Positions 3,158 to 64,000 of a stretch of 64,000 nucleotides of DNA are shown one piece after another. The stretch is from assembly GCF_964204645.1 (NCBI RefSeq), contig NC_134029.1:16052950-16116949 (forward strand), read 5' to 3'. The stretch's first letter is position 1, and each line of letters opens with the position of its first letter. Below the pieces are notes generated by a model. That model was not told the DNA's origin, did not search any database, and saw only the letters and a program-made list of their open reading frames with translations. The position numbers were made by a program, and so were the translations under genes. This stretch comes from Tubulanus polymorphus. Taxonomy: Eukaryota > Animalia > Nemertea.

Positions 3158-3469
3158 GTGGTTGTGTCGGAACATTAAGTTTTTTGGTCGAACAGTGTGT
3201 TAAGGTCGTTTTGGAAATTTACTCGGTCTGGTATATTTTGGATTACTGTGTATGTCATTTGTCAGGACATTAAACAAAAGACGACTTAGGATGCTACCTT
3301 GCGTGACTCCACTAGTTAGACCGTCTCATTCCAAGATGAGGCGTTCCGTTGATTTCGGTTACAAGTTTCCGTTCAGAGATAACTGCTGAGCCATTTGGGC
3401 GACCTATCATTGATGCTGTTTCCTAATAGCCTGTTTAGTAATGGCTGATGTTGAGCCTTATCAAATGCT

Positions 3470-5387
3470 TTGTTGAAATCCACCGTTGAACAGGATTCTA
3501 AGACTGTGCAGAAAACCCGTTATCGCTGCTTTGCAGCTATATTTGAAGATGAAATTCGAAGAGGAGATGGTCCAACGGCAGTAAGATCGAAACTAGGATA
3601 TGTAATTTCGGGTCCAGTAAGTAAGTCTGAATCTGTAAACCAAGCTGTGATCATGAGCATTGTGACTTCTCATAAAGAAGAAGAAATTGAGTTAGATACT
3701 TATTGGAAGCTTGAGACGTTAGGTATTTCGGAAACCGAGTCTGATCTAATGTTTCAATCGTACTGTCAGAATTCTATTACATTTGTCGATGGCCGCTATA
3801 TAGCACGTTTACCGTGGAAACCTGTACACCCCGAGCTTCCATCTAATTACGACATTAGTTATGCAAGGACACGATTAATGATCTGTAGGTTAGATTCTGA
3901 TTTGCTTCAAACTTACGATGCCGTTATTCAGGACCAGCTCAAACGTGGTTTTATAGAATTAGTTGACAAAGAATTCGTTTCGCCCAGTATTGGTCATTAT
4001 ATACCACACCATCCAATCGTAAAAGATTCTATGACAACCCCCGTGAGGGTAGTCTATGATTGTAGTTGTAGTAAAGGGCCTGGAGAACCTAGTCTTAATG
4101 ATTGTCTTTTAAAGGGTCCTAATCTCATAAACGATCTTTGTTCTATTATCTTGAGATTTCGATTATTTCGATACGGATTTTGCTCTGATATAGAGAAAGC
4201 ATTCTGCTACATGAAGACGATCGTGATTATGTTAGATTTATGTTGCTATCTAATCCACATGATGCCGAGAGTGAGTTTGTTGTTTATCGTTTTCGCGTAG
4301 TTCTGTTTGGAGCCAAAAGTTCTCCTTTTATTCTGAATGCAACACTTAAACATCATCTAGGTTTAAATGATTGTAATATTTCTAGAGATTTACGTGAGAG
4401 CTTATATGTAGATAATGTTTTATCAGGTAGAGATACTGATACTGAGTTGATTGAATACTATGAGACTTCTAGAACATTACTCAATGAAGCAGGGTTTAAC
4501 CTGCGTGAGTGGCTGTCCAATTCTGAAGATTTAAAGCAAAGAGCATTAAAAGATGATGTATTGAGTAGCAAACAGTCTGTGAAGACTTAAGGTATCTACT
4601 GGGATACTTCTGGTGACACGTTACGGCTGGTAAAACACGATGTTACCGATACGCCATTGATTACGAAGAGAGAGATTGTCAGTGAAACGGCCAGGGTTTA
4701 CGATCCACTAGGATTAATTACTCCAGTCACTATTAATTAGCAAAGAAATTTATTCAGAATTTGTGGAAATCCGGTCTTGACTGAGATGAACCTTTATCTT
4801 TGGAGCTTCGTGATCAATGGGCAGTTATTTCACGTGATTTATCTATTAGTACTAGTTGTTTTTTGCCCAGAGCATATTTTGATTTCGGGATCATCGGTAA
4901 GAAGTGTGAACTTCATGTTTTCGGTGATGCAAGCAAGTCAGCCTATGGAGCCGTTGGGTATCTCAAGGTTGAGGGCAAGACATCATTTGTCATTTCTAAG
5001 AATAGGGTATCTCCATTCAAAGTGAGAACAATTCCAGAAATGGAACTCATGGCTGCCTTGCTCGCATCACGTTTGGCTACTTACATTAAAGAATCGATGG
5101 ATTCTCGACTACATATTGATACACATATTTGGTCTGATAGCCAAATTGTTCTGTCCTGGATTAATTCCGATAGACAATTGAGTACGTTTGTTATTAATCG
5201 GATTTTAGAAATTCGAAAGTTGACCTCTAAATGCATGTCATACTGGCATTACTGTAACAGTCAAAGTAATCCTGCAGATCTTCTTTCACGTGGAGTTTCT
5301 GCGGATACTCGTGCTTCGTGTGAATTATGGTGGAAAGGGCCGACATGGCTATCAGAGTCTCGGCTACCAAATTTTCATTTCTATACT
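3470..5387 (+). pseudogene. pol: BEL/Pao pol, 5' part (protease tail, reverse transcriptase, RNase H), frameshifted
   Basis: GPTAVRSKLGYVISGP, YIPHHPI..TTPVRVVYDCS, SLNDCLLKGP, DIEKAF, FGAKSSPF, LYVDN, HVFGDAS..AYG, IPEMELMAA, WSDSQIVL, NPADLLSRG spread over ORFs 3470, 4240 and 4800. Confidence 0.93.
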
Positions 5388-5979
5388 AGTAATAGGGATA
5401 ATAGGCTTTCAAGCCAAAGGTCGAACGGTCGAGTTCATAAAAAACAAAACATTAAAAGTAATTTAAAACTATAATATATTTTCATAACCGTGTGTATTTT
5501 ATATTAAAACTAAATATTTATTCTAAGATATCAATAATTCAAAAAGCATATTGTATTAAATCAATTGGTCGCTCCACTTCGCTACCGCTCCGCTCCGCGA
5601 CCAATTGATTTATTTACAATACACAAATTCATATAATCAAATATATTCAAATAATAATAATTATTCTATTATTCAACTGAAATACACACGGTTATGAAAA
5701 TATATTATAGTTTTAAATTACTTTTAATATTTGTTTTTTATGAACTCGACCATTCAACCTTTAACCTGAAAGCCTATTATCCCTATTACTCTTAAAATAT
5801 TCATGTAAATGAATAACATTTAAAAGTGTAAGCTCTTATAGAATAGATATATAGATATATTTACAACATTATTTCAATATTCATATTTGTGTGAGTTAGA
5901 TTTTTAAACATTAAAAGTGTTAGTAAAGTGTAATTGAAATAATACATATATAAATCATTGAACTTCTAAAATCAATTTA
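5388..5979. repeat. Left TIR of A, containing a 403-bp terminal hairpin (5388-5790)
   Basis: Inverted match to ~39696-40111; starts AGTAATAGGGATAATAGGCTTTCA and contains its reverse complement ending at 5790. Confidence 0.9.
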
Positions 5980-9000: not shown

Positions 9001-10162
9001 TAACTCACGAAGATAAATATAATTATGCAGTACATTATAGAATGTTAAAGTTTTATCTAAAACAAGGAATGGTTCTAAAAAAAGTACATAGATATATTTC
9101 ATTCAGTCAATCTAAGTGGTTAGAAAAATATATAGATTTTAACACCAAACAGGGAACTGAAGCTAAAACTGATTTCGAGAAAGATTTCTTCAAGTTAATG
9201 AACAATGCATTCTATGGTAAGACTTGTGAAAATATTAGAAATAGAAATGATATTGAGTTAGTTAGTAATGGTAAAAGGATAAGGCATTTACAATCATATC
9301 CTAAGTTTATTGGTAACAGAATATTTGATGAAAATTTAGCCGCAGTTAAGATGAGAAGAACATCAATGAAATTTAATAAACCAATCTATGTTCAACATAA
9401 TATTCCTACTTGGAAAAGTCACAATTTCTTCGGTTTCGATATATTCCTTTTGAAACCTTCAATATTCCTAATTAATCTGCCATTCATCCCTAAATGGAAT
9501 TTTGAAAGGTTGGCAGCCCTGATGTTGGCGCTTCAGTTTTAGAATTATCAAAATTACTAATGTATGAATTCTATTATAATGTATTACAACCACTTTTTGG
9601 AGAAAAACATATAGAAATATTATATTTTGATACTGACAGTTACATATTAAAGATAAAAACTGATAACATAACTGATGATTTAAAAACATTGAAACATCAT
9701 TTTGATTTCAGTAATTATCTTAAAAATCATGAATTGTTTAGCAATGATGATAAAAAAGTTCCCGGTAAATTCAAAGATGAATTAGGTGGTGAAGAAATGA
9801 TAGAGTTCATAGGTATTAGATCTAAAATGTATTCATATAAAACTAAAGAACATGAAGCTAAAAAGTTAAAAGGAATAACCAAAAGTGTAGTAGAAAAGAA
9901 TATTCATTTCAAAGATTACATCAATTGTATATTCAATGAAGAAGTTAGAAAACATAAGATGAAATGTTTAAGATCTGAAGATCATGAAATGTTTATTGAA
10001 GAAATTGAAAAGATAAGTCTAAACCCATTTGATGATAAAAGATATATTTTAGATGATGGAATTCATACAGTTGCATATGGTTGCAATTTAGATGAATACT
10101 TAAAATTTAAAAGAGAAGAAACAAAAGAGAACGAGATAATGAAAAGAATTCTAACGTGTTAA
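6001..10162 (+). pseudogene. pPolB: Protein-primed family B DNA polymerase of A (stops at 7344 and 8754, frameshift, 129-bp insertion)
   Basis: Collinear with the intact 33222-37247 copy; FHNLSGYD, YIDANNLY, KLMNNAFYGK, YFDTDS. Confidence 0.95.
9393..9521. mobile_element. 129-bp insertion in pPolB of A, flanked by an ATGTT duplication
   Basis: Copy C reads CCAATCTATGTTGGCG uninterrupted. The insert ends GGTTGGCAGCCCTG, resembling a DNA-transposon TIR end. Confidence 0.7.
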
Positions 10163-33221: not shown

Positions 33222-36200
33222 TTAACACGTTAGAATCCTTTTCATAATTTCATTTTCTTTTGTTTCTTCTCTTTTGAATTTTATATATTCATCTAAATTG
33301 CAACCATAGGCGACTGTGTGGATTCCATCATCTAAAATATATCTTTTATCATCAAATGGGTTTAGACTTATCTTCTCTATCTCTTCAATATACATTTCAT
33401 GATCTTCAGATCTTAAACATTTCATCTTATGTTTTCTAACTTCTTCATTAAATATACAATTGATGTAATCTTTGAAATGAATATTCTTTTCTACTACACT
33501 TTTAGTAATTCCTTTTAACTTTTTAGCTTCATGTTCTTTAGTTTTATATGAATACATTTTAGATCTAATACCAATGAACTCTATCATTTCTTCACCACCT
33601 AATTCATCCTTAAACTTACCAGGAACTTTTTTATTATCATTGCTAAACAATTCATGATTTTTTGGATAATTACTAAAATCAAAATGGTATTTTAATATTT
33701 TTAAATCATCATTTATATTATCACTTTTTATTTTTAATATATAACTGTCAGTATCTAGATATAATATTTCTATATTTTTTTCTCCAAAATGGGGTTGTAA
33801 TATGTTATAGTAAAATTTATACATTAGTAATTTTGAAATTTCTAAAACCGATGCTCCAACATAAATAGGTTTATTGAACTTCATAGAAGTTCTTTTTAAT
33901 TTAACTGCTGCTAAATTTTCATCGAATATTCTATTACCTATGAATTTCGGATACGATTGTAAATGTCTAATTCTTTTACCATTACTAACTAACTCAATAT
34001 CATTTCTATTTCTTATGTTTTCACAAGTCTTACCATAGAATGCATTATTCATTAACTTGAAGAAATCTTTCTCAAAATCAGTTTTAGCTTCAGTTCTCTG
34101 TGTAGTATTAAAATCTATATATTTTTCTAACCATTTAGATTGACTGAATGAAATATATCTATGTACTTTTTTTAATATCATTCCTTGATTCAAATAAAAC
34201 TTCAACATTCTATAATGCACAACGTAATTATATTTATCTTCTTGAGTCACCATTAACTTTTCAGTATGAATATGATTATCGGGTTTAATTCTTTTTTGAT
34301 AATTTGATAATTCTTCATGTTTAACAGTTTTATGTTCGGGACAATATGCTAGATTTCTAGATTTGAATTTAATATTTTCAGGGTATTCTAAATCTACAAC
34401 AAAGAAGTAACCAGTATCTGAATCATCTGCAATATCTAGGATTCTTTTCTTCCAATCAAATTTATCAATTTGTAAAACTTCAGTTATTTCAAACATCCCA
34501 TAAGGTTGTGGTTCCATCATTGCCCAACCATACAAATTATTTGCATCTATATATAATAACTTATATCCAGGGTTATCATTTACATTGAAATATCTATCAA
34601 CTAATACACCTGAAACACCTCCTCTTATAGATTTTTCAAATAATAGTAATTGATCTATATTTGTTAACAAATCCATTTTTATATCTGTAAATTTTAATCC
34701 ACAATCCCATGTTAATCCTGGTGATGAATAACAATGACAAGGATCAATGTTAAAATATTTTAGGTTTACATCTCTAAACCTTTCGAATATATCGGTTAAT
34801 AATAATACATCTGATTTTAAATATAAATCTACTAATTGTCCATGATTTTTAATTTCAAAATGATTCCAAATATGCAATGTTCTATTATAAACTTCATCTT
34901 TAACATATTCATTTTTTAATTCATCATAGAATTGTTCTTTCAATAATTCAGTTATGTTAAAATCATTATGATTTTTATAGAAAGAATATGGAATCGCTCC
35001 TTTATATCTCATTAATTTAAAATCATCATAATTTGGGTAATATTCTTTTAATATCTTTAATTCATCATCAACTAATGATTTTGATAAGTTATCTAATGAA
35101 CTATTTAAAAATCTATATGAATCTATAAATCTTAGACAACCAAATTGGAATGATATATAATTCTCAGATGTTTTAGCTAACATTCTAAATTTATAAGTTG
35201 GTATTTTATCTTTTGATCTATTTGAATTTAATATTTCTATTTCATTATTGATTTCTTCTATTTTATGACATAACTGTTTGATGAATAAATGTGCATCATA
35301 TCCTGATAGATTATGAAATATAACTGGTACAAAATTAATTTTCTTAGCTTGTAAGTTACAATTCTCATGTGCAGCGCCTCTAAACTTTCCATTCAAATGA
35401 TCATGGTCTCTTACTTTTTTATCTTTATAATTAAATATCTTTTCACAATAATAACATTTATCTGCAAACTCAAATGCTTCTTTATCTTCTTCTGTCATAA
35501 TTATTTCTTTATTTGTATTCAATAATTTACTAAATCTTATTTCATATTCAATTAATAAGTCACAAAAATGATTGATAACATTTTCATTTCTATAATGATA
35601 ATATTCACTTTCAATTAGTTCTGGATAATCAGATTTAATATATAACCCGAAAGCTGCAGCTGATTGATGAATCTTTTTAATAGTATTTGTTTTTGGAGGT
35701 TCTTCTGAATAATCACTTTCATTAGAATTTAATTTCTTTCTTTTATAATATATATCTTTTCTATCTTTATCTGTTAATTCTTTATTTAATGATTCAAAAT
35801 CTCCATATATTACAAATGGTACTTTATTTTTGTAATCATATTTTTTGAATTCTAATATTTTATCCTTTTCATTTGGTAAAACTAATTTACAATAATCATG
35901 ATTATCGCATAGTTGTTTATGATTTAATAATGCACCTTCAGTTCTGAATTTATGTAAACATTTTCTACATAGATATATTTTATTATCAAAATCATTTTCT
36001 GATTTAAAAAATAAATCGATTTGTTTAATCCACATATAATGATTCTCATAATATAGTATATCTATAACATCATTTGAATCATAATCTTTTGATAGATATA
36101 AAGGTTCTAATGTATAATGTTTAATATTATTTCCTTTTGTATTTGGTAATTTGATTAAATCAAATACATTTATCTTTATATTATTATCTCTTTCTATTTT

Positions 36201-37247
36201 GGGGATGTTTTTAATTCTAACAGGATACTTATCTATCTTATAATTATTTTCAAATGGTTTATAATGAGTTAATCTACAAATATTATAAGTTGCAGGATGT
36301 AAACAACTTATTATAGCCCATAGAAAACATTTATCATCTTCATTTTGTATATTTATTACAGCATTAGTTTTAAATGGTAGTTTAATATAACTTGATGCTT
36401 CAATATCGGGTTCTTTATAATATGATAAATTATTTTCATCAATTGGTTTTGATTTAGTTAACTTATTATATTTTGTGTTATAAACATGTAAAGTTATAAA
36501 TATTATCTCATCAAATATTAAACCAGATCCTTCAAAATATTTTTCTTCTATTTTAGTTTTTATTTCATTATAACATTTATTTAATTTATCATCTATATGT
36601 TGTTTAGATATAATATGTTGTGAATGAGAATTTATATTATATATTGGTTTATCTTCAGATTTTATAAACTTTACTTTAACTGATATACTAATTTTAGGAT
36701 ATTCAACATCTGTAATTATTTTTATTATTTCTTTCATATTTTCTAAATGTTTTTTATTTTCTTCTATTGTTTTACTTTTATGAAATTTAAACTCGATAGC
36801 TGCTGGACCAATATCACTTTTAAATGCTTCGGTTATCTCTATATCTTTTTTATTATCTAATGAATTAATATAATTTCTTACATCTTCCATATATGGTCTT
36901 TTATTGTTTAATTTATTTTTTATTCTTTTAATTGTCTTCTGTTTCTTATCGTTATCATTATCAAAATAATCTTCACCTAAAATATCATTATTCTTATTTC
37001 TAATATGACTTATAGATTTTAAATGTTCTTTATAATATCTTTTATCACTGAATGATTGATTACATGTATCACATTTATATGTTTCTTTTTCATTCTTTAA
37101 TTCTTCTAATTTAGTTTCTAATATATCATCCTTATACTCTAGTTTCAATTTATTCTCTAAATGTGTTATAGTTTTATTGTGTCTTGCTTTTTGAGACTTG
37201 TCTATATCGATATTACATGTTGGGCAGTAGTACTTATTTGCTTCCAT
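33222..37247 (-). CDS. pPolB: Intact protein-primed family B DNA polymerase (1341 aa) with zinc fingers, OTU-like protease region and endonuclease VII-like insert
   Basis: Exo YGDFES / FHNLSGYD / YLKSDV; Pol YIDANNLY / KLMNNAFYGK / YLDTDS; NEDDKCFLWA..HYMWIK; CYYC..VRDHDHLNGKFRGAAHENCNL. Confidence 0.97.
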   Translation of the reverse strand: MEANKYYCPTCNIDIDKSQKARHNKTITHLENKLKLEYKDDILETKLEELKNEKETYKCDTCNQSFSDKRYYKEHLKSISHIRNKNNDILGEDYFDNDNDKKQKTIKRIKNKLNNKRPYMEDVRNYINSLDNKKDIEITEAFKSDIGPAAIEFKFHKSKTIEENKKHLENMKEIIKIITDVEYPKISISVKVKFIKSEDKPIYNINSHSQHIISKQHIDDKLNKCYNEIKTKIEEKYFEGSGLIFDEIIFITLHVYNTKYNKLTKSKPIDENNLSYYKEPDIEASSYIKLPFKTNAVINIQNEDDKCFLWAIISCLHPATYNICRLTHYKPFENNYKIDKYPVRIKNIPKIERDNNIKINVFDLIKLPNTKGNNIKHYTLEPLYLSKDYDSNDVIDILYYENHYMWIKQIDLFFKSENDFDNKIYLCRKCLHKFRTEGALLNHKQLCDNHDYCKLVLPNEKDKILEFKKYDYKNKVPFVIYGDFESLNKELTDKDRKDIYYKRKKLNSNESDYSEEPPKTNTIKKIHQSAAAFGLYIKSDYPELIESEYYHYRNENVINHFCDLLIEYEIRFSKLLNTNKEIIMTEEDKEAFEFADKCYYCEKIFNYKDKKVRDHDHLNGKFRGAAHENCNLQAKKINFVPVIFHNLSGYDAHLFIKQLCHKIEEINNEIEILNSNRSKDKIPTYKFRMLAKTSENYISFQFGCLRFIDSYRFLNSSLDNLSKSLVDDELKILKEYYPNYDDFKLMRYKGAIPYSFYKNHNDFNITELLKEQFYDELKNEYVKDEVYNRTLHIWNHFEIKNHGQLVDLYLKSDVLLLTDIFERFRDVNLKYFNIDPCHCYSSPGLTWDCGLKFTDIKMDLLTNIDQLLLFEKSIRGGVSGVLVDRYFNVNDNPGYKLLYIDANNLYGWAMMEPQPYGMFEITEVLQIDKFDWKKRILDIADDSDTGYFFVVDLEYPENIKFKSRNLAYCPEHKTVKHEELSNYQKRIKPDNHIHTEKLMVTQEDKYNYVVHYRMLKFYLNQGMILKKVHRYISFSQSKWLEKYIDFNTTQRTEAKTDFEKDFFKLMNNAFYGKTCENIRNRNDIELVSNGKRIRHLQSYPKFIGNRIFDENLAAVKLKRTSMKFNKPIYVGASVLEISKLLMYKFYYNILQPHFGEKNIEILYLDTDSYILKIKSDNINDDLKILKYHFDFSNYPKNHELFSNDNKKVPGKFKDELGGEEMIEFIGIRSKMYSYKTKEHEAKKLKGITKSVVEKNIHFKDYINCIFNEEVRKHKMKCLRSEDHEMYIEEIEKISLNPFDDKRYILDDGIHTVAYGCNLDEYIKFKREETKENEIMKRILTC

Positions 37248-37609
37248 TTTAATACTATATTTTTTATTAAAATTGATTTTAGAAGTTCAATGATTTAAAT
37301 GTTATTCATATATATGTGAATATTTTAAGAGTAATAGGGGTTTAGTTGTTTCAGGTTAAAGGTTGAACGGTCGAGTGAGTAAAAAATGAAAAAACAAAAA
37401 TAATAACAATTCAAACAACTCACACTTTACTCACACTTTCTTCTAGCGAGTAGAAAATGAAAAATAAATTCGAGTATGCGAGAATTATTGTTCATTTTTA
37501 TGAGTTTTGCGAGTAATTCAAGTAGAAATTGTTATTATTTTTATGTTTTTTCATTTTTGCGAGCTCGACCGTTCGACCTTTGATCTGAAACAACTAAACT
37601 CCTATTACT
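37134..37609. repeat. Right TIR of B (476 bp), hairpin at 37330-37609
   Basis: Reverse complement of 19705-20182. Confidence 0.95.
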
Positions 37610-38130: not shown

Positions 38131-38484
38131 CGATCGATAATAGAACAATGGAGAACAATAGAAATGCGGTCCAATCGGACCGGTTATTGCGCAATACACA
38201 GTTATATTTTTGTTCTGTAAACTACAACATCCAAACATAGAACTGTAACCAATCAATATTGAGCAGCTGTTTCAGTCAACAACGATCAATAGTAGAACAA
38301 TGGAGAACAATAGAAAAGCGGTCCAATCGGACCGGTTATTGCGCAATACACAGTTAACAGTAAACAATCAATACAGAACAACCGCCGCCATTAACAACGA
38401 TCAATAATAGAACAATGGAGAACAATAGAAAAGCGGTTCAATCGGACCGGTTATTGCGCAATACTTAGTTAACAGTAAACAATA
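38131..38484. repeat. Three direct repeats (spacing 152 and 115 bp) containing small palindromes
   Basis: TAGAACAATGGAGAACAATAGAAA.GCGGT.CAATCGGACCGGTTATTGCGCAATAC at ~38131, 38283 and 38398; two copies in C at 49606-49802. Confidence 0.88.
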
Positions 38485-39005
38485 CAATATTAAAACAGAT
38501 ATGTACAATCGAGATTACATTTTTTGATATCTATATTACAAAGACCTTCAGTGTGTTACGAGAGTTTCATCCTCCATTTCTATTGATTCCTGAGTTTCAC
38601 TATTCAGCAGCATTAGTTCCTTTTCCTATGGTTGGCTTAGAAGTTCTGGTTCATCTTTGTGTTCCATTTTAATCTAAAAGATATCGTGAAAATGAATTAC
38701 TGTACTTAAATATGTTTAAAGGTTTCCCTACTTCATAATATATGTACTTACATTTAGATTTAGAACTGTAAACTGTGTTTTGAGAGAGAATATCCAATAC
38801 GTACTATGTATGTGAAAGTTGATTTCTAACTGCCGACGTGGCGCACGTTCAACCAAACTAATTATTTCTGCACAGATGTTCTTTATGATGAAGTTAATTA
38901 ATTCTTTAGAATTGAAAACAAGATATATTTGGCAACATATGTTTTAGTAGTAAGCAAAAGCTATGTATTATATACATACAAAGCTCAAATAGAATTTCCA
39001 GCTTT

Positions 39006-39674
39006 CTAACCACTGATTAAAACCTCAGAATGCGGTTGATTCTGTGAAATACTATTCCATAATTCAACAAATGTCTTTGCTTTATCCAGTTGATCTAAAT
39101 ATAACTGTAAATCTAGTTTATTAGATTTAATTATATTTTCCTTCTTTTCTAAAGGCCTTAAATTTTTCCAGTTCCATATTAGCTTCTTATTATAATCATC
39201 ACTCATGTCAAATTTAGAAATCGGCAACACGTGATCAATATGAAAGTATTCACCATAATTATCTATATTCATTTTATCATCGAACTGAAATATAATCCAT
39301 GATTTTAAGAATTCATCTGAACAACCCAATAAATTAGATAGTGTTTCTGAATGTGTTTCTTTGTTGAATAATTGTGTTAATCTAGATCTTAAGCATTGTT
39401 TCAATCTAAAATTAATATCTGTTTGATATCTTACTCTCATATATTCTGTCATATAATCATTACAAGCTTCTCTATTATCTTCTCTATATTGTTTGGTATA
39501 TAGTTTAAAACAAGTTTTACAGCAATATTGAAAACCATCTTTGCTAATCTTACGCTTACTAAATTCTGTTAAAGCTAATTTATCTAATTCACATTTAGAA
39601 CACATCTTGTATTATATATTTTTGACGCCAGTGTTATTTGTAATATTTATAGTTTGTGGTTGTTCTGATTCCAT
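39006..39674 (-). pseudogene. HNH endonuclease of A (frameshift near the 5' end)
   Basis: Near-identical to 48413-49081. Confidence 0.82.
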
Positions 39675-39695
39675 TTATTATACATATTTTTTTAC

Positions 39696-40111
39696 TAAAT
39701 TGTTTTTAGAAGTTCAATGATTTATATCATGTATTATTTCAATCACACTTTACTAACACTTTTAATGTTTAAAATCTAACTCACACAAATATAAATATTG
39801 AAATAATGTTATAAATATATCTATATATCTATTCTATAAGAGCTTACACTTTTAAATGTTATTCATTTACATGAATATTTTAAGAGTAATAGGGATAATA
39901 GGCTTTCAGGTTAAAGGTTGAATGGTCGAGTTCATTAATAACAAATATTAAAAGTAATTTAAAACTATAATATATTTTCATAACCGTGTGTATTTCAGTT
40001 GAATAATAGAATAATAATTATTATTAAAATATATTTGATTATATGAATTTGTGTATTGTAAATAAATCAATTGGTCGCGGAGCGGAGCGGTAGCGAAGTG
40101 GAGCTATTACT
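39696..40111. repeat. Right TIR of A, lacking the outer hairpin arm except the terminal 8 bp
   Basis: Matches 5570-5979 in reverse, then ends ..GTGGAGCTATTACT. Confidence 0.88.
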
Positions 40112-40117
40112 GATACT

Positions 40118-41791
40118 GTTGATTGTGCAAATAATTCTTTCGTTACTGTTACAGCTACGTCAGTTGGATCGAATACTTGTTACGGTATACATAAGGCTAT
40201 GGATATTGATAGCTTTAATTCGTTGAATCACCTGTTGAGAGTGACGATTCGTGTATACAGATTTGTAAATATGTTACTGCGTAAAAGTTTTGTCCCTCTT
40301 TCAGATCCAATCACTGTAGAAGAACGCGAATTTGCGGAGAATCAATGGGTGTTCGGTATTTAGAGTGAAGGATTTGGTGATATTATTCATTCCTTACTTC
40401 AAGTTTTGGTAAGACAGTTGAAACTCTTTTTGTCTGATGGCGTCCTTCGTTGCGGGGGGAGAATACAGAACGCTAGGCTTCCGGTGAAAACGAAGTACCC
40501 GATCCTGTTGCCGAGAACCCATCGATTCACGTTTTTGTATCTTCGTTACGTCCATTGTATTAAGGTAATGCATGAAGGTGTTAATGCAACAATAGCATTT
40601 GTTAGACAGAAATATTGGGTACCACAAATTCGTCGTCGTATTACCTCTTTGATACACAAGTGTGTGCCTTGTATTAAGGCTGGCACTGGTAAACCATTCG
40701 TGCTTCCCGATCCGGCTCCATTACCCGCCGTACGAGTTCAAGAAGCGCCACCCTTTTTAGTAGTTGGTATTGATTATACAGGCGCTTTAATCGTAAGAAC
40801 CGAATCATCTGATGCAAAGGTTTATATTTGTCTTATAACATGCGCTATTACTAGAGCGTTACATTTAGAACTTGTAACTGACCTTACCTGTGATGCCTTT
40901 CTTTTAGCATTTCGTAGGTTTTGTGCTCGTCGATCGTTTCCACGTATTGTGTACTCTGATAATGCTTCAACTTTTACATGCGCATCCGAGGAACTCTCGA
41001 ATTTATTCAAATCACTGAAAATCTTTCAATTCATGGCCCAGAATGGGGTCGAATGGCGTTTCATTCCAAAAAGAGCTCCGTGGTTCGGAGGATTTTGGGA
41101 GAGGTTAGTTGGGATGGTAAAAAGCTGTCTGAAAAGAGTCATCGGTCGTGCAAAACTTAACTACGATGAATTGAATACTGTTGTTATTGAATGTGAATGT
41201 ATAATTAATGATAGACCTTTAACATATGTTGATAGCCGTGTTTTAGAACCAGAACCACTAACTCCTTCTCACTTAATCTATGGCCGCGGAATATCGGCTC
41301 TTCCGCAACCTATTACTGATGCTGATACGTTGGCTGATCCAGATTATGGTCATAGCGAGTTGAATCGTCGGCAAGAACATCGCGCCGTACTCGTGCAGCA
41401 TTTCTGGGGAAGATGGAAAAACGAGTACCTCACCGCACTCAGGGAGCGACATAATCAGTCCGGAAATAATCAGGAAATAGTGAAAATAGGTGATATCGTT
41501 CAAATCCACGCGGATAACCCTCGTCTTACATTGCGTTTGGGTATCATCGAAAAGTTGAATCGTGGAAATGATAACTGTATGCGATCGGCGGTCGTGCGAA
41601 CCGCTAAGGGTCGAACGAGTAGACCCATTAATAAGTTGTACCCGCTCGAAATAAATCATCAAGAATTCGCGAAACAGGAGCCACAACCCGAAAAAGCGCG
41701 TAGGATCATCCACCCGAAACGTGCGGCTGCCGTTGCAGCCTTGCAGAAACTTCGCGCCGGGAGAATGTCGGGACTCGGTCCTATGGAGTGA
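40118..41791 (+). pseudogene. pol: BEL/Pao pol, 3' part (integrase)
   Basis: DIDSFNSLNHLLRVT, LRCGGRI, H..HEGV..C..C, GIDY, SDNA, APWFGGFWERL, INDRPL, LTPSHL, RPINKLYPLE. Confidence 0.93.
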
Positions 41792-42284: not shown

Positions 42285-42586
42285 TTAAATAAATTCATAT
42301 TTAAATGGGTGTTGTAATCGAAATAGTAATTTTGATCTTTTGTTATTTTTCAATTTATCCATATATTCATTATGTAAATCATGTGGAATAATATCATTTT
42401 CCTCAAGTGCATTTTTCATCGATTTTCTATCTTTATTGTAGAATCAAACTAGAAATCTAATGTTTTCTCTAAAATCTTTAACAATTGAATCATATTTTTG
42501 ATTTAAAACCCACGTTGTTATCCCAAAATGTCTCCCAGAGAAAGCTAAATAATATAATTCACTTTCTCTCACTTTTGAATCATGTA
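42285..42586 (-). pseudogene. C-terminal fragment of a divergent packaging ATPase
   Basis: Reverse strand reads HDSKVRESELYYLAFSGRHFGITTWVLNQKY..RLQHPFKYEFI*. Confidence 0.8.
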
Positions 42587-42627
42587 GAGGTCTCATGAAG
42601 GGGTCTCTAATTCATTTAATATTAATC

Positions 42628-43011
42628 TTATTTGAAAGTATGTATGAAATCTAAATGAACTAAATGAATCAATTTATATTTAGAATTATTCAAATGATCA
42701 TTCCAACTAATTCCACATCCTGTTGTTGCACAATAAACTGCAAAATTTAGTTGGTTCCGCCAATACTTCATATTAGATTTTAATAACCATTGTTTTTCAT
42801 TTTTCAATTTTTTAAAATTAATTAAATATACATGAAATATATTTTCCATATTTGCATTAGAATTATTAGTATCAGTAACATAAATTTCTAAATTAGTTAA
42901 TGAATCTAAAACTTCATTTCTATATGAAATATCTTTATTAAAATCTATTGCTAGAATATTATATTTAATTGATTTATTATATTGAAAAGCTTTTGGAAAA
43001 CTAATTGCCAT
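42628..43011 (-). pseudogene. 5' fragment of the 433-aa protein
   Basis: YWRNQLNFAVYCATTGCGIS. Confidence 0.8.
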
Positions 43012-43027
43012 TTATATAATCAAAAAA

Positions 43028-43462
43028 TTAATAATTTATTAATTCTTTTAATAATTTATCTCGTTCTTCAACTGTTATATGACCATTTAAAATAATTATA
43101 TAATCTAATGTGTTTTTTAATTTATTAATTTCTTTTATATTAGTTTTAATTTTTTCTTTATTACTTTTTATGTTTAATTTTGAACTTATACCAGTTAAAA
43201 CACTTGAACTTAAAGCTAACACACCAATTGATATAGCTAAAGGTGTTAATGGACTGAATATTACTAGAAATGTTATTACAGAACTAATTGTAACTGAACC
43301 ACTGATAATAAAATGATATATAATTTTAATTTTTAAATATTTTTTCTTTTTTATCTTTAAGTCACTTTCAAATTCTAATATTTGTTTTTCTAAATATATT
43401 TTTAATTTAGTTTTATTTATATCATGAGGAATAATATCAATATTATCAACTTTATCATCCAT
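43028..43462 (-). CDS. 144-aa two-TM protein (D copy)
   Basis: Near-identical to 30591-31025. Confidence 0.78.
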   Translation of the reverse strand: MDDKVDNIDIIPHDINKTKLKIYLEKQILEFESDLKIKKKKYLKIKIIYHFIISGSVTISSVITFLVIFSPLTPLAISIGVLALSSSVLTGISSKLNIKSNKEKIKTNIKEINKLKNTLDYIIILNGHITVEERDKLLKELINY

Positions 43463-43482
43463 TTATTTCCCAAAAAAAATTA

Positions 43483-43906
43483 CTAATTAGTAAATTTATA
43501 TGCTACAAATATAACAATAACAGTTCCACCTAAAATCCATATTATTTCATATTTCTGTTTTTCTTTACTTGGGGTATAATAATCTGATAATTTAGGTTTG
43601 TATAGATGTAATTTTTCTTTATTTGTTACCGCGTTATATAAACTCATTGCATCATTAACTGATTGAAAATCTCTATGTGAAATCTTCTGATCATATAATT
43701 CTTTGTTAATATAATCCATGTAATTTTGTCTCTTTTCTCTATATTCTTCTGCAGCTTTATTATATTTTTTCTAATGCTAAATTATGTCTTTTTTGTTCTG
43801 ATAATGACCCATTTTTTATCAATATGCTTAAATAAATATCCACCACCAGTAAATGCTAAAGCGTTAACAATTGCCGATCCTATTATAGTTATAATTGCAG
43901 AAGCCA
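43483..43906 (-). pseudogene. 140-aa protein (D copy, frameshifted)
   Basis: Homologous to 31045-31467. Confidence 0.78.
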
Positions 43907-43934
43907 TTTATTTAGCAAAAAAATTATGCACTTC

Positions 43935-44156
43935 TTATATGGGAGGGATATATTTTTGTTTTTCCAAATAATTAATAGTTAAATTAGATAAAGTTACTGC
44001 TAACGTTAATTTTAAAATATCATTTATATCAAATCTATCAACATTAACACTTCCCATTTTAAATACTTTTTTTAATACCATTGAATAACCAACAGTTCCA
44101 ACTGATAGTAAGGCTCCATTATATAATCCAGTTATTATCCACTTATTATCACTCAT
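43935..44156 (-). CDS. 73-aa hydrophobic protein (D copy)
   Basis: Homologous to 31493-31714. Confidence 0.75.
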   Translation of the reverse strand: MSDNKWIITGLYNGALLSVGTVGYSMVLKKVFKMGSVNVDRFDINDILKLTLAVTLSNLTINYLEKQKYIPPI

Positions 44157-44514
44157 TTATTTAGAAAAAAAAAATTACTATCTTCAAAATATTCATTTAT
44201 CTTAGTTATAATTATTTCAACATTTATAGTATTATTAGTTTCATTTTCATATATTTCAGTTATCATTTTTTAATATCATCGATAATAAAATCTTCATCTA
44301 ATTCATAAAATCTTAAAGATTCTCTAATTAAATCAGTAATCTTTTCTACATTTAAAGTTTCTTTATCTATTGTTTTTTCATACTCAAATGTTGTTTCATT
44401 AGAAAATGCAATATTTTTAATATGTGTAATTACATCAGTAATGTTTAATTTCATTTCTTTCTCACGTTTAAAATCAAATCCAAAACATATGCTCGGTCCA
44501 ACAGTTATATTCAT
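44157..44514 (-). pseudogene. MNITVGPS-family gene (A-type allele, frameshifted)
   Basis: Homologous to 11276-11632. Confidence 0.72.
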
Positions 44515-44530
44515 TTATATAATGAAAAAA

Positions 44531-45285
44531 TTATTCTTTACATCTTATCACTAATCCATAAATTACAGGAAAGTTATTCAAATCAATTAAGTATCCATTA
44601 AGATTTCTTATTTCTAATTTGAAATTATTGAAATGTGGAATACAAGGTTTAAAATCACATACAGCTAAATTATAATTTATTTGCGTTCCAAATTGTTTAA
44701 CATTTTTAATGGTATAATATTTAATATACTAGAATTACAAATTGTAGCTTTAGTTGCTTCAAATGTTTTTGTAGGATCAATTAAATTGCAATAAATATAA
44801 AAGTGTGTAAAAGTCATTAAATTTGTATAAGTTTCGATACTTGAATAATCTCTATCTGGAAGAATTCCAAACAGTTTAGCTATAGGTTTTCTTACTAGAA
44901 ATCTATGTTGTTCATTAGTTAACTTTATTCTTACTTTACTCGAACTATCACTTTTAATAAATTTAATTTCAAATCTAGCAGCTGCACCCATTTTTAAACG
45001 AGCTCTTCTATTAATTTCTTGCGCAAATGTTTCTAAATTATATAATCCTGGTTTTAGATAAAGATGAAACCATTTATTCAAATGTCTAACATGAATTTTA
45101 AAAGCTAAATGATCGAGACTTTTATTCGATATATTATGAAAAGAATTACATAAACTTAAATTAAATAATTTTAAATCTACACAATTCTTAAATTCTCTAT
45201 CTAATTGTACTAGTAAATTATGTGATTTATAATTTGTAAGTCTTCTAGAATCAACAAATATTCTGTATTCTTTTAATTCTACCAT
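44531..45285 (-). pseudogene. Minor capsid protein (D copy, 3' frameshift)
   Basis: Homologous to 32073-32834. Confidence 0.78.
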
Positions 45286-45355
45286 TTATTTATAACATAA
45301 AAAACATTACCGCTCACCACTAAAAATTAATTTTAATAAAAATTTTCCTAAATAA

Positions 45356-45725
45356 ATGGATGAGAAGATACCATGTGAAATTTGTGGTGAACTTCTAAGA
45401 AAAAGTTATATGGCTCGACATATGAAAAAACATGATGAAATTTATAAACCCACTAAAATAAACTGCCCAAATTGTAATAAATTATTCTCAAGAAATTATG
45501 TTAAAAAACATTCAGAGAAGTGTAAAGTTAATGACACAACGGTTAATGTTGATAGTAATGAAAGTAATAGTAATTCTGTTGAAGTTGAATCTGAAATTAT
45601 TTGGAAAAGACCTTTCTTATTCTATGATAAGAATGATATAAAAGATCATTTCTGTGAGCATTGTCGAATAAAATATAGCCCTGAAAATATAGAAGATTGG
45701 GAGAATCATCAATTTCATAAAATCT
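45356..45725 (+). pseudogene. Truncated C2H2 zinc-finger gene unique to D
   Basis: CEIC..H..KH, CPNC..H..C, CEHC; TAAATG start; runs into the antisense strand of the intein at ~45720. Confidence 0.65.
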
Positions 45726-46309
45726 ATGATTTTAAATGTTTTATTTGGGTAAACTTCTTCACAGTATTTCTTTATTCTTTCTAATAATTTCAAATCTTGA
45801 TTACATAAATACCAACAATATTGAGTTCCACTAACATAATTATACACACCTGCTGAACCATCTCCCATGAAAAATCCTTTGATAAAATATTCTTTTTCAA
45901 CCAATGTTTCGGGTTCTATATTATAAATATTATCAGTTATTTTATCAAATGACATATGATTCATTCTTTGGAAAAATCTTTTATGTAATAATTCATCTCC
46001 AATTTTTACATCAGTTGGTTTTATTTCATCACCATTTCGTTTAATTAAACTATGATCTTCTTTAACATCAACGAATCCTAATTTAGTTCTTACTCTATAG
46101 ATTTTCTTATTTGTTTTATGCCTAGTAATATTCTTTAATTTTTTCCATTCATTTCTTGTCCATACATCCATTAATCCATTTATTTGTATTAATTCTTTTT
46201 CACCATATGAAATATAACGTTCATTTTGTTTTGGAATTATTTCTGAAATTCTTCTAATTAATATTTGGTTATTGTATTTCAATAATATTGGGGTGTCAGC
46301 TGTTACAGA
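45720..46309 (-). mobile_element. Intein (N-terminal splicing domain plus first LAGLIDADG motif), C-terminally truncated
   Basis: Begins exactly between YFD and the expected TDS with SVTADTPILL (block A); VDVKEDHSL (block B); FIKGFFMGDGS (LAGLIDADG). Confidence 0.9.
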
Positions 46310-48032
46310 ATCAAAATATAATCTTTCAATATGCTTTTCCCCAAAAAGTGGTTGTAATACATTATAATAAAAATCATACATTAATAATTTTGATACTTCT
46401 AAAACAGTTAAACCAATGAATATAGGTTTATTAAATTTCATTGACGTTCTTTTTAATTTAACTGCTGTTAAATAATCTTCAAATCTTTTATCTCCTAAAT
46501 GTCTAGGGCTTGATTGTAAATGTCTCAATCTTTCAGAATTATTTACTAATTCAATATCATTTCTATTTCTAATATTTTCACATGTTTTACCATAAAAACT
46601 ATTATTCATTAATTTGAAGAAATCTTTTTCAAAATCTGTTTTTGATATGGTTCTCTGTTGAGTATTAAAATCTATATATTTTCCTAACCACTTCGATTGA
46701 TTAAATTCAATATATCTATGTACTTTCTTTAATTTCATTCCTTGTTTTAGATAAAATTTTAACATTCAATAATGAACAATATAATTATATTTATTATTTT
46801 GAGTAAGTATTAATTTTTCTGTAAAAACATGATCTTTCGGTTTTATTTTCTTCTGGTATTCACTTAAATAACTATCATCTACGGTTAAATGTTCCGGGCA
46901 ATATGGTAAGTTTCTTGTTTTAAACTTTATGTCATCAGGATATTCTAAATCAACTACAAATAACCAATTGGTACTTCATCTTTTAAAGTCGCAATTGCGC
47001 TTTCCCAATCAGTTTTATCATCTTTTTCAACTTCTGTTAATATAAAATTTCTGTACGGTTGAGGTTGCATCATTGCCCAACCATATAAATTATTGGCGTC
47101 AATATATAATAATTTATATTCATCATTTGCTTTAAAATGTCTATCACCCATAACACCACTAATTCCACCTCTAATTGATTTTTCAAATAATAAAACCATG
47201 TCTGGTTCTTTTAATAAATCTAATTCTACGTAAGTATATTTTAAACCACATTGCCAGGTTAAACCAGGACTTGAATAACAATAACAAGGATCAACATTAA
47301 AATGATTCAAATTAACTTCTCTAAATTTTTCAAATATATCAGCCAATATCATAACATCTGATTTTAAGTAAAGATCAACTAATTCACCATGATTTTCTAT
47401 CTTAAAATGGTTCCAAATATTTAATGTTCTATTAAACACTTCATCTTTCACATACTCCTCTTTTAATTGGTAATAAAATTGTTCTTTTAATAATTCTGTT
47501 ACATAAAAATCATCATGTGTTTTATAAAATGAATAAGGAATTGCGCCTTTATATCTCAATAATTTTGTTCATTTGGGTAATAATGTCGAGTTATTATAAA
47601 ATCATTATCAACTAAACTTTTTGCTAAATTATCTAATGAACTTGCTAGAAATCTATAAGAATCTAAAAATCTAATGCAACCAAATTGAAATGAAATGTAA
47701 TTTTCAGATGTCTAAGCTAATAGTTTAAAATCATATTTTCTTACATTTGTACCATTCATAGCATTATGTTCTTCTATTTCTTGATTAATTGCACCCAATT
47801 TTCCTGATAATTGTTTTATAAATAGATGGGCATCATAGCCCGATAAATTATGAAATAAAATTGGTACGAAATTAACTTTCTTAGCTTGTAAATTACAATC
47901 TTCATGAGCAGCTCCACGATATTTTGAATTTAAATGATTATGATCTCTAACTTTTTTATCAAATGAATAAAAACGTTTTTCACAGTAACAACAATGAGTT
48001 GCATAATTAAAATCAATTTCATCTTCCTTTGT
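45720..48032 (-). pseudogene. pPolB: Divergent pPolB of D, carrying an intein
   Basis: VRDHNH, FHNLSGYD, YIDANNLY, KLMNNSFYGK, then YFD followed by non-polymerase sequence. Confidence 0.92.
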
Positions 48033-48222
48033 AGTAATAGGGATAATAGGCTTTCATACCAAAGGTCGAACGGTCGAGCTCGTAAAAATGAAAAAATAAT
48101 AATAATTTACAGTTGAATTAGTCGCGCACACTCCTAATTCAACTGTAAATTATTATTATTTTCATTTTTTTACTCACTCGCCCCTTAGACCTTTGATATG
48201 AAAGCCTATTATCCCTATTACT
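48033..48222. repeat. 190-bp terminal hairpin of C
   Basis: AGTAATAGGGATAATAGGCTTTCATA...TATGAAAGCCTATTATCCCTATTACT. Confidence 0.92.
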
Positions 48223-48412
48223 CTTAAAATAATCATATACATGAATAACATTTAAATTGACAGATTATTCAATATAAAAGTGTAAGCTCTTATAGAATAG
48301 ATATATAGATATATTTACAACATTATTTCAATATTCATATTTGTATGAGTTAATGCATGATATAAATCATTGAACTTCTAAAATCAATTTAGTAAAAAAA
48401 TATGTATAATAA

Positions 48413-49081
48413 ATGGAACCAGAACAACCACAAACTATAAATATTACAAATAACACTGGTGTTATAAATATATATTACAAGAAGTGTTCTAAATGTGAAT
48501 TAGATAAATTAGCTTTAACAGAATTTAGTAAGCGTAAGATTAGCAAAGATGGTTTTCAATATTGCTGTAAAACTTGTACTAAACTATATACCAAACAATA
48601 TCGAGAAGATAATATAGAACATTATAATTATTATATGGCAGAATATATGAGAGAAAGATATCAAACAGATCTTAATTTTAGATTGAAACAATGCTTAAGA
48701 TCTAGATTAACACAATTATTCAACAAAGAAACACATTCAGAAACATTATCTAATTTATTAGGTTGTACAGATGAATTTCTCAAATCATGGATAATATATC
48801 AATTCGACGATAAAATGAATATAGATAATTATGGTGAATACTTTCATATTGATCACGTGTTGCTGATTTCTAAATTTCACATGGGTGATGATTATAATAA
48901 AAAACTTATTTGGAATTGGAAGAATCTAAGACCTTTAGAAAAGAAGGAAAACATAACTAAATCTAATAAACTAGATTTACAGTTATATTTAGATCAACTG
49001 GATAAAGCAAAGACATTCGTTGAATTATGGAATAGTATTTCACAGAATCAACCGCATTCTGAGGTTTTAATCAGTGGTTAG
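48413..49081 (+). CDS. HNH-family endonuclease with zinc finger (C copy 1)
   Basis: FHIDHV..NWKNLRPLEKKEN..KSNK. Confidence 0.8.
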   Translation: MEPEQPQTINITNNTGVINIYYKKCSKCELDKLALTEFSKRKISKDGFQYCCKTCTKLYTKQYREDNIEHYNYYMAEYMRERYQTDLNFRLKQCLRSRLTQLFNKETHSETLSNLLGCTDEFLKSWIIYQFDDKMNIDNYGEYFHIDHVLLISKFHMGDDYNKKLIWNWKNLRPLEKKENITKSNKLDLQLYLDQLDKAKTFVELWNSISQNQPHSEVLISG

Positions 49082-49938
49082 AAAGCTGGCAATTCTATTG
49101 AGCTTTGTATGTATATAACACATAGCTTTTGCTTACTACTAAAACATATGTTGCCAAATATATCTTGTTTTCAATTCTAAAGAATTAATTAACTTCATCA
49201 TAAAGAACATCTGTGCAGAAATAATTAGTTTGGTTGAACGTGCGCCACGTCGGCAGTTAGAAATCAACTTTCACATACATAGTACGTATTGGATATTCTC
49301 TCTCAAAACACAGTTTACAGTTCTAAATCTAAATGTAAGTACATATATTATGAAGTAGGGAAACCTTTAAACATATTTAAGTACAGTAATTCACTTTCAC
49401 GACATCTTTTAGATTAAAATGGAATACAAAGATGAACCAGAAATTCTAAGCCAACCATCGGAAAAGGAACTAATGCTGCTGGATAGTGAAACTCGGGAAT
49501 CAATAAAAATGGAGGATGAAACTCTCGTAACACACTGAAGGTCTTTGTAATATAGATATCAAAAACGTAATCTCGATTGTATATATCTGTTTTAATATTT
49601 TATCGTTTACTGTTAACTAAGTATTGCGCAATAACCGGTCCGATTGAACCGCTTTTCTATTGTTCTCCATTGTTCTATTATTGATCGTTGTTAATGGCGG
49701 CGGTTGTTCTGTATTGATTGTTTACTGTTAACTAAGTATTGCGCAATAACCGGTCCGATTGGACCGCTTTTCTATTGTTCTCCATTGTTCTATTATCGAT
49801 CGCTAAAATTTACATAATAAATATATGTATTTATGAAATAATATTTCCACCAGTCGTTTCTTTGAATTTATTTTCAGTTTGAGATTATGAATAGGATTCT
49901 AACATGTTAATCAATTTTAATAAAAATATGTATTATAA

Positions 49939-61560: not shown

Positions 61561-64000
61561 TATTCTTTTCTACTTCACTTTTGGTTATTCCTTTTAACTT
61601 TTTAGCTTCATGTTCTTTAGTTTTATATGAATACATTTTAGATCTAATACCTATGAACTCTATCATTTCTTCACCACCTAATTCATCTTTGAATTTACCG
61701 GGACTTTTTTATCATCATTGCTAAACAATTCATGATTTTTAAGATAATTACTGAAATCAAAATGATGTTTCAATGTTTTTAAATCATCAGTTATGTTATC
61801 AGTTTTTATCTTTAATATGTAACTGTCAGTATCAAAATATAATATTTCTATATGTTTTTCTCCAAAAAGTGGTTGTAATACATTATAATAGAATTCATAC
61901 ATTAGTAATTTTGATAATTCTAAAACTGAAGCGCCAACATAGATTGGTTTATTAAATTTCATTGATGTTCTTCTCATCTTAACTGCGGCTAAATTTTCAT
62001 CAAATATTCTGTTACCAATGAACTTAGGATATGATTGTAAATGCCTTATCCTTTTACCATTACTAACTAACTCAATATCATTTCTATTTCTAATATTTTC
62101 ACAAGTCTTACCATAGAATGCATTGTTCATTAACTTGAAGAAATCTTTCTCGAAATCAGTTTTAGCTTCAGTTCCCTGTTTGGTGTTAAAATCTATATAT
62201 TTTTCTAAATTCACTTAGATTGACTGAATGAAATATATCTATGTACTTTTTTTAGAACCATTCCTTGTTTTAGATAAAACTTTAACATTCTATAATGTAC
62301 TACATAATTATATTTATCTTCTTGAGTTACCATTAACTTTTCAGTATGAATATGATTTTCGGGTTTAATTCTTTTTTGGTAATTTGATAATTCTTCATGA
62401 GTTACGGTTTTATGTCCGGGACAGTAAGCTAGATTTCTAGATTTAAATTTTTTATCTTCAGGATATTCTAAGTCTACAACAAAAAAGTAACCAGTCTCTG
62501 AATCATCTGCAATATCTAGAATTCTTTTCTTCCAATCAAATTTATCATTATTTTCATTCTGTAAAACTTCAGTTAATTCAAATACTCCTTAAGGTTGTGG
62601 TTCCATCATTGCCCAACCATACAAATTATTTGCATCTATATATAATAACTTATATCCGGGGTTATCATTTACATTGAAATATCTATCACCTAATACACCT
62701 GAAACTCCTCCTCTTATAGATTTTTCAAATAATAGTAATTGATCTATATTTGTTAACAAATCCATTTTTATATCTGTAAATTTTAATCCACAATCCCATG
62801 TTAAACCTGGTGATGAATAACAATGACAAGGATCAATGTTAAAATATTTTAGGTTTACATCTCTAAACCTTTCGAATATATCGGTTAATAATAATACATC
62901 TGATTTTAAATATATATCTACTAATTGCCCATGATTTTCTATTTTGAAATGATTCCAAATATTCAATGTTCTATTATATACTTCATCTTTAACATATTCA
63001 TTTTTTAATTCATCATAAAATTGTTCTGTTAATAATTCAGTTATGTTAAAATCATTATGATTTTTATAGAAAGAATATGGAATTGCTCCTTTATATCTCA
63101 TTAATTGGAAATCATCATTATTTGGGTAGTGTTGTTTTAATATTTTCAATTCATCATCAACTAATGATTTTGGTAAGTTATCTAATGAACTATTTAAAAA
63201 TCTATATGAATCTATAAATCTTAAACACCTAAATTGGAATGATATATAATTCTCAGATGTTTTAGCTAACATTCTAAATTTATAAGTTGGTATTTTATCT
63301 TTTGATCTATTTGAATTTAATATTTCTATTTCATTATTAATTTCTTCTATTTTATGACATAACTGTTTGATGAATAAATGTGCATCATATCCTGATAGAT
63401 TATGAAATATAACTGGTACAAAATTAATTTTCTTAGCTTGTAAGTTACAATTCTCATGTGCAGCGCCTCTAAACTTTCCGTTCAAATGATCATGGTCTCT
63501 TACTTTTTTATCTTTATAATTAAATATCTTTTCACAATAATAACATTTATCTGCAAACGCAAATTCTTCTTTATCTTCTTCTGTCATTATAATATCTATA
63601 TTTGTATTCAATAATTTACTAAATCTTATTTCATATTCAATTAATAAGTCACAAAAATGATTGATAACATTTTCATTTCTATAATCATAATATTCACTTT
63701 CAATTAGTTCTGGATAATCAGATTTAATATATAACCCGAAAGCTGCAGCTGATTGATGAATCTTTTTAATAGTATTTGTTTTTGGTGGTTCTTCAGAATA
63801 ATCATTTTCATTAGAATTTAATTTCTTTCTCTTATAATATATTTCTTTTCTATCTTGATCAGTTAGTTCTTTATTTAATGATTCAAAATCTCCATATATA
63901 ACAAATGGTACTTTATTTTTGTAATCATATTAGGAAATTCTAATATTTTATCCTTTTCATTTGGTAAAACTAATTTACAATAATCATGATTTTCACATAA
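61561..64000 (-). pseudogene. pPolB: pPolB of C (stop at 62589, frameshifts, 3' deletion fusing it to the downstream small gene)
   Basis: FHNLSGYD, YIDANNLY, KLMNNAFYGK, YFDTDS. Confidence 0.93.

Follow-up and report, generated by a model that had tools for sequence, protein, structure and literature searches.

A putative Polinton-specific branch of pol-c inteins, with a broken copy in the polymerase of a partial Polinton

When examining the DNA polymerases of Polintons, we observed what is very probably a distinct branch of pol-c inteins, specific to Polintons, that is inserted in motif C of the protein-primed polymerase (pPolB), and whose intact members are predicted to splice and are likely to be homing. 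The 64,000-nucleotide stretch of DNA analyzed here (hereinafter, the window) contains a member of this branch in the polymerase of one of its Polinton copies, denoted element D (Table 1). Judged by its sequence, this insert is the N-terminal half of a LAGLIDADG intein at the pol-c site, that is, a broken, dead copy. The finding extends beyond a single relic to a family that, in some populations of Polintons, probably continues to move. The Polinton branch of pol-c LAGLIDADG inteins is apparently undescribed, and its members are probably resident in animal genomes.

The palm region of the element D polymerase is encoded in an ORF on the minus strand (46765-45617), in which the sequence ending with KHIERLYFD runs in frame into SVTADTPILL and, from position 46309 on, into sequence unrelated to the polymerase. 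The initial annotation, made from the nucleotide sequence, interpreted this insert as an in-frame intein located after the YFD of pPolB, and this interpretation is borne out both by the existence of intact relatives and by profile searches with the translation of 46309-45713, where the N-terminal Hint region is recognized by the TIGR01445 (intein_Nterm) profile with a score above the cut-off (28.5 bits against 24.5, E 2.2e-6), the matches to the Pfam profiles Intein_splicing (E 0.07) and LAGLIDADG_3 (E 0.08) being weak and below the cut-off. The best match of the fragment among PDB sequences is the intein PI-PkoII (E 0.0012). The GC content of the insert (0.25) matches that of the polymerase (0.22-0.23). 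The profile match and the intact relatives rule out a frameshift or a chance insert, and a Hedgehog-type Hint domain is ruled out by the LAGLIDADG motif together with both splice junctions.

The assignment to the pol-c site (YxD/TDS, the slash denoting the insertion point) also holds, three empty copies in the window reading LY[FL]D/TDSYILKIK. In block B, the fragment has Lys in the position of Thr, as had been noted, with the His retained (codon 46063-46061), and the Thr-x-x-His motif is matched in 11 of the 12 related pPolB inteins. Furthermore, the fragment contains only the first LAGLIDADG motif, its alignment with P0002, a full-length relative with which it shares 65% identity over 199 aa, stops at 45713, and the C-terminal Asn/Thr junction is absent beyond 45712-45721, in agreement with the original view of a dead copy that is cut before the second LAGLIDADG motif and the C-terminal splice junction.

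The break itself is a zone of 9-10 bp that is claimed by both flanks, namely, the intein side and a convergent C2H2 zinc-finger gene, and a deletion at this point seems to have taken out the C-extein along with the second LAGLIDADG motif and the C-terminal splice junction. Raw reads from organism A (run X6, approximately 12% of the run, 3802 reads placed at 85% likeness) were compared to the window; organism A may be a relative rather than the species of the window itself, the best word share being 0.36, with 21 of the 3802 reads at least 99% alike. At the break, 120 reads diverge from the window at 45712, and 140 do so at 45721 from the opposite side, against a depth of about 230, so nearly all reads continue differently here; the break is private to the window copy, and many intein-bearing copies in the reads lack it. 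The depth over the intein is 200-265, a value that a single-copy sequence could reach only if the genome were smaller than approximately 10 Mb, so many intein copies are likely to be present; this evidence spans the N-terminal half of the intein. At the insertion site, the depth is 251 just inside and 466 just outside, with 112 reads leaving at 46310, under a likeness filter that leaves out the more distant empty copies; the reads of organism A seem to come from a population in which filled copies are mixed with empty ones. At base 46062, in the altered block B codon, 233 of 243 reads differ from the window, the base of which is the minority state.

Table 1. Features of the window related to the intein of element D and its surroundings
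Feature	Positions	Strand	Basis or comment
Truncated intein, 199 aa: N-terminal Hint splicing region and first LAGLIDADG motif	45713..46309	-	TIGR01445; 65% identity to P0002 intein
Intein block A, Ser first, YxD/TDS (pol-c) site	46271..46309	-	site definition in PMC549080
Intein block B region, Lys codon 46063-46061 where relatives have Thr	46040..46084	-	motif alignment; base 46062 in reads
First LAGLIDADG motif, FIKGFFMGDGS	45854..45886	-	motif; weak PF14528 match; full relatives above cut-off
Junction, inferred deletion with short overlap	45712..45721	.	reads leaving at both edges
Convergent C2H2 zinc-finger gene, cut at the intein junction	45356..45721	+	zf-C2H2 E 3.6e-4, below cut-off; single copy in window
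N-extein, decayed pPolB of element D, three frames with stops	46310..48038	-	tblastn with the window's 1354-aa pPolB, 58-69% identity
Remainder of element D: penton-like gene, small ORFs, ATPase remnant	42288..45285	-	86-88% identical to neighboring Polintons
Empty-site pPolB of element C, 1354 aa, YLD/TDS, Endonuclease VII-type HNH insert	33225..37286	-	comparison copy
Empty-site pPolB of element A, C-terminal part, YFD/TDS	9506..10162	+	comparison copy
Third empty-site pPolB, YFD/TDS	61678..62214	-	comparison copy
BEL/Pao retrotransposon integrase region adjoining element D	40364..41791	+	DUF5641 6e-17, Integrase_H2C2 2e-8

Protein searches, a representative search and cluster look-ups yielded 430 related proteins, namely, 386 PolB, 35 of the pPolB type and nine that could not be assigned to a class, and junction patterns delimited 232 full-length inteins, of which 16 are in pPolB. 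With seven near-copies dropped and the intein-only ORF P0328 added, there are 10 distinct full-length relatives of 333-354 aa, nine located inside pPolB and one being P0328. Full-length relatives that return to TDS, the presence of which the initial annotation had treated as decisive, were indeed found: all 16 full-length inteins in pPolB start with Ser, end with Asn and are followed by TDS. The expected HN/T junction, by contrast, stands only in part because, although Asn and the ensuing TDS are invariant, the His is not obligatory: the C-terminal pair is His-Asn in 13 inteins, Lys-Asn in two (P0345 and P0003) and Ser-Asn in one (P0002), which rules out His-Asn as a required intein end. The TIGR01445 profile scores above the cut-off in three of the seven relatives scanned, and in P0002, P0003 and P0199, the Intein_splicing, LAGLIDADG_3 and DNA_pol_B_2 domains are found in a single ORF. 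The whole protein closest to the window copy is P0002, with 65% identity in the intein and 62% in the N-extein. The AlphaFold model of P0328 (pLDDT 90) best matches endonuclease-bearing inteins (7qsu, E 5e-19), with further matches to PI-PfuI, PI-PkoII, PI-SceI and I-DmoI.

None of the 113 loci fetched in the genome-level searches had pPolB as the best extein match, and scans of viral sequences with the window fragment and with P0328 produced no matches; the same type of scan with P0326 and with alignment A2 retrieved large-virus PolB loci only. Two weak metagenome loci found with the window fragment as the query (24 residues, E 3e-4) were treated as spurious. The prokaryote genome scan yielded 25 loci, mostly archaeal, and the scan of the phage collection yielded one match at 27%.

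The mobility of the family can be gauged from closely related polymerases with and without the intein. The 90% identity cluster of P0199 comprises 136 members, and among the 15 that were examined, whose contigs range from 57 kb to 1 Mb, seven are filled, six are empty and two do not cover the site. The exteins of the filled and empty alleles are 94-99% identical, but near the site, 9-11 of 30 residues of the empty alleles differ from the filled reference, compared to 1-5% elsewhere (Fisher p 2e-5 to 7e-12, calculated at the protein level for six empty alleles that are not independent). Such clustering of differences at the site is what co-conversion of the flanks or escape from cutting would be predicted to leave, and the intein family is probably mobile in some Polinton lineages. 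All six empty alleles (in the set of P0199 and P0301-P0314) have TDA or CDS at motif C, in three local variants, and the flank of the filled P0199-family alleles is identical to the filled flank of another family in 24 of 30 positions versus 19-21 of 30 for the empty alleles of its own family; this pattern may reflect resistance alleles, a co-conversion tract, or both. A counterweight to taking TDA at motif C for proof of resistance is P0345, where an intein is present and is then followed by TDA.

The same comparison bears on a simpler scenario, namely, a single entry of the intein into an ancestral Polinton followed by passive inheritance and repeated loss, with homing extinct or rare. Compatible with this scenario, many short relatives look decayed, and among HNH-type pPolBs of different lineages, the intein and extein identities track each other (41-52% and 44-50%, respectively), such that homing and inheritance are not told apart in this group. 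However, the intein of P0003 is far closer to the others (41-50% identity) than the polymerase in which it resides, which is barely alignable with them (19-41% identity in poor alignments, best BLAST E 0.002), so this intein appears to have jumped between pPolB classes at a later time. Together with the divergence peak at the site in otherwise nearly identical filled and empty alleles, and with the retention of the Asp in both LAGLIDADG endonuclease motifs of all 10 distinct full-length inteins, this makes purely passive inheritance unlikely. The two classes differ also in domain recognition: P0003 strongly matches PF03175 (111 bits), whereas the window pPolB shows no match and is assigned by homology to the PF03175-positive P0002 and P0199. 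By description, this contrast resembles the split between Alpha and Beta adintoviruses (Starrett et al. 2021, PMC8502044).

Element D belongs to a group of several Polinton copies in the window that jointly include the polymerase, an rve integrase, an A32-like ATPase and a capsid-like gene. The integrase (rve, 2e-9) and the ATPase (Pox_A32, 1.8e-11) are found in the neighboring copies, element D itself being partial, and the capsid look-alikes were recognized by features alone, below the usual level of recognition. In the pPolB of element D, the N-terminal approximately 595 residues are unmatched. Along element D (42288-48038), the polymerase is about 75% identical at the nucleotide level to the three other copies in the window versus 86-88% for the structural-side genes, which suggests that the polymerase module was exchanged.

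A non-animal host for an otherwise genuine intein, which would undo the claim on animal genomes, is quite unlikely, even though no host gene was identified in the window and the intact relatives come from metagenome-type records. One of the relatives, P0329, is filed in a Thiodiazotropha MAG labeled 'ex Ctena', which we take to refer to a clam host, and this record suggests the presence of host DNA in the Thiodiazotropha assembly. The principal reason to assume an animal host is that two BEL/Pao fragments, the one adjoining element D and another at 3455-5474, lie among the Polintons of the window, BEL/Pao having been described as a metazoan group (PMC3118150); Peptidase_A17 (1.7e-24) is among the domains recognized for these fragments.

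Phylogenetic analysis was performed with a 231-row FastTree tree, a 48-row IQ-TREE tree (13 pPolB inteins, 33 PolB inteins selected by distance thinning and two topoisomerase inteins) and an outgroup tree (eight pPolB inteins, 28 viral-type PolB inteins including GVMAG contigs, and seven archaeal pol-c inteins). The pPolB inteins grouped together in the FastTree tree and, in the 48-row tree, including the window copy, comprised a single clade (13 of 13 rows) with 100/100 support, the bootstrap being not fully settled; in the outgroup tree, they again clustered together (8 of 8, 100/99) and were nested among the viral PolB inteins at a node with 95/97 support. The stem of this clade is long, at 0.28-0.40 changes per site, and the alternative, sister topology, in which the viral inteins are held together, was not rejected by the AU test (p=0.458). 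The nearest relatives of the window intein are other Polinton inteins, with 63-72% identity, compared to at most about 47% for the viral ones, and no close giant-virus donor was found among the PolB proteins, the best reaching that same approximately 47%. The two inteins of the 48-row tree that come from a topoisomerase II-type protein (P0205), where they occupy non-polymerase sites, fall within the same intein family, so this family is not confined to pol-c.

The trees and the protein searches uphold the view that the nearest relatives of the window intein outside Polintons are giant-virus-type PolB inteins, this label being assigned on the basis of PF00136 together with the exonuclease domain, one Edafosvirus name and GVMAG loci. 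The initial annotation had further proposed that an intein moved between a large DNA virus and a Polinton and was then endogenized. The relationship of the two families supports the exchange, but a one-off jump followed by endogenization in this element does not fit a single clade on a long stem, and because of this topology, the Polinton of element D most likely acquired its intein from other Polintons. The phylogenetic test that had been suggested places the Polinton inteins among viral PolB inteins in the best tree, but does not force a viral origin. The crossover with large DNA viruses would have been old and single, and most likely went from a large DNA virus to a Polinton, the direction favored by the best tree; we infer a co-infected cell as its setting. 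A direct acquisition from a co-infecting giant virus by this Polinton or a recent ancestor prior to integration is very unlikely because, although giant-virus-type PolBs make up the bulk of the matches (386 of the 430 related proteins are PolB), GVMAG contigs carry related inteins and 31 of 54 ORFs have TAAATG starts (see below), the gap in identity between Polinton and viral inteins and the long-stemmed, fully supported pPolB clade contradict such an event in the recent past.

The preferred scenario, in which a Polinton-specific lineage of inteins spreads by homing, can be outlined as follows. The precursor would be translated, and Ser1, the Thr and His of block B, the terminal Asn and the +1 Thr would act to rejoin the YxDTDS active site; these splicing steps follow established intein chemistry and the features given for the Mimivirus intein (PMC549080). 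The freed endonuclease would then cut the empty motif C sequence in other Polinton copies, and the cut copies would be repaired from an intein-bearing copy, a filled template being supplied by a many-copy genome or by co-replication. A single old crossover, which probably took place in a co-infected cell and involved the PolB inteins of large DNA viruses, would have been followed by inheritance and homing among Polinton lineages, with at least one jump between two deep pPolB classes, and the window copy would have decayed after integration. Homing between a giant-virus PolB and pPolB requires that both DNAs are in the same compartment. More speculatively, and in our estimation doubtful, an actively homing intein might drive through multicopy Polintons in animal genomes, with the empty copies diverging at motif C while escaping cutting, and Polintons might use the transcription machinery of cytoplasmic large DNA viruses, hence the shared inteins.

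In the window segment 5500-64000, TAAATG starts 31 of the 54 ATG-started ORFs of at least 100 aa versus 7-8% of all ATGs, and in most of the ORFs without such a start, the ATG looks like a Met codon inside a broken gene. TAAAT is the vaccinia late-promoter motif (PMC4542343). These starts may indicate that a cytoplasmic helper virus carries out the transcription, or may be only start-codon context; they are a hint of large-virus-type transcription and no demonstration of co-infection.

Inteins at the motif C site of DNA polymerases are not without precedent. One case is the pol-c allele in the Mimivirus PolB (Ogata et al. 2005, PMC549080), an intein that, like those of Polintons, is about 350 aa long, starts with Ser, ends with Asn ahead of a +1 Thr and contains a LAGLIDADG endonuclease. 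The insertion site is common to both (YGD/TDS in Mimivirus, YFD/TDS in element D) but, compared by description, the Mimivirus host protein is an RNA-primed, Pol-delta-like PolB whereas the Polinton polymerase is protein-primed. The GVMAG pol-c inteins (IMG/VR; L008, L065, L066, L087) share the site and the motifs with the Polinton inteins and are their nearest non-Polinton relatives, with 35-47% identity; the Polinton inteins nevertheless form a long-stemmed clade of their own, the nesting of which inside the viral inteins is favored, not forced. The inteins of archaeal PolBs (L041-L057) occupy the same insertion site (YGD/S...HN/TDS) but are longer, about 394-456 aa, and represent a distant outgroup.

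Another example comes from two algae and a labyrinthulid, the endogenous viral polymerases of which contain inteins (Gallot-Lavallee et al. 2023, PMC10710043). As in the Polinton case, intein-bearing viral polymerase genes are located on nuclear scaffolds, but the polymerases are viral-like and the hosts are not animals; the words polinton, metazoa and animal are absent from the main text of that article, and polinton, maverick and metazoa from two of its supplements. Nuclease inserts of the HNH and VSR types have been reported in pPolB (Jeong et al. 2023, PMC10748475; Krupovic et al. 2024, PMC11161782) and, citing Jeong et al., Krupovic et al. suggest that they result from intein invasions; the word 'intein' does not occur in the text and supplement of Jeong et al. 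These inserts, one of which, of the HNH type, is present also in the window pPolBs, are nuclease domains inserted in frame within pPolB at other positions, with no splicing domain in the published descriptions, whereas the Polinton inteins combine a Hint domain with splice junctions that lie in the active site. The survey of Green et al. 2018 (PMC5784728) reports viral polymerase inteins in Phycodnaviridae, Iridoviridae and Mimiviridae and a lack of inteins in the genomes of metazoans, its supplement listing 0 for Metazoa. The accessible text of Starrett et al. 2021, its supplement and a coral polintovirus paper do not mention inteins, and two further articles (PMC12220804, PMC13768754) do so only in general terms. 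The literature searched does not describe any Hint-domain intein in the polymerase of a Polinton; outside of this literature lie subscription journals, Repbase/Dfam, InBase and figure-only supplements.

If the scenario of a homing Polinton lineage of inteins is correct, protein splicing and a homing endonuclease enter animal nuclear DNA via a transposon-virus, and the inteins described here would be the first case, at the level of sequence, for the intein invasion of pPolB suggested by Krupovic et al. They would also mark an exchange of genes between large DNA viruses and Polintons, and bear on the question of whether helper viruses occupy the same infected cells as animal Polintons. With filled and empty alleles co-occurring in one family, homing and resistance can be tested directly among transposon copies.

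Several repeats accompany these elements in the window. The region of element D is flanked by 1.67-kb inverted repeats with 92% identity (38283-39931 and 48176-49802) that include a 222-aa gene, of which the window holds four copies. Where the polymerase homology of element D stops, there is an 89-nt inverted repeat with a 12-nt loop (48033-48222), and a similar pair is located upstream of the element C polymerase (37330-37609). At the start of the window (24-1386), there is a low-complexity tandem array with repetitive ORFs and an AT skew of -0.39.
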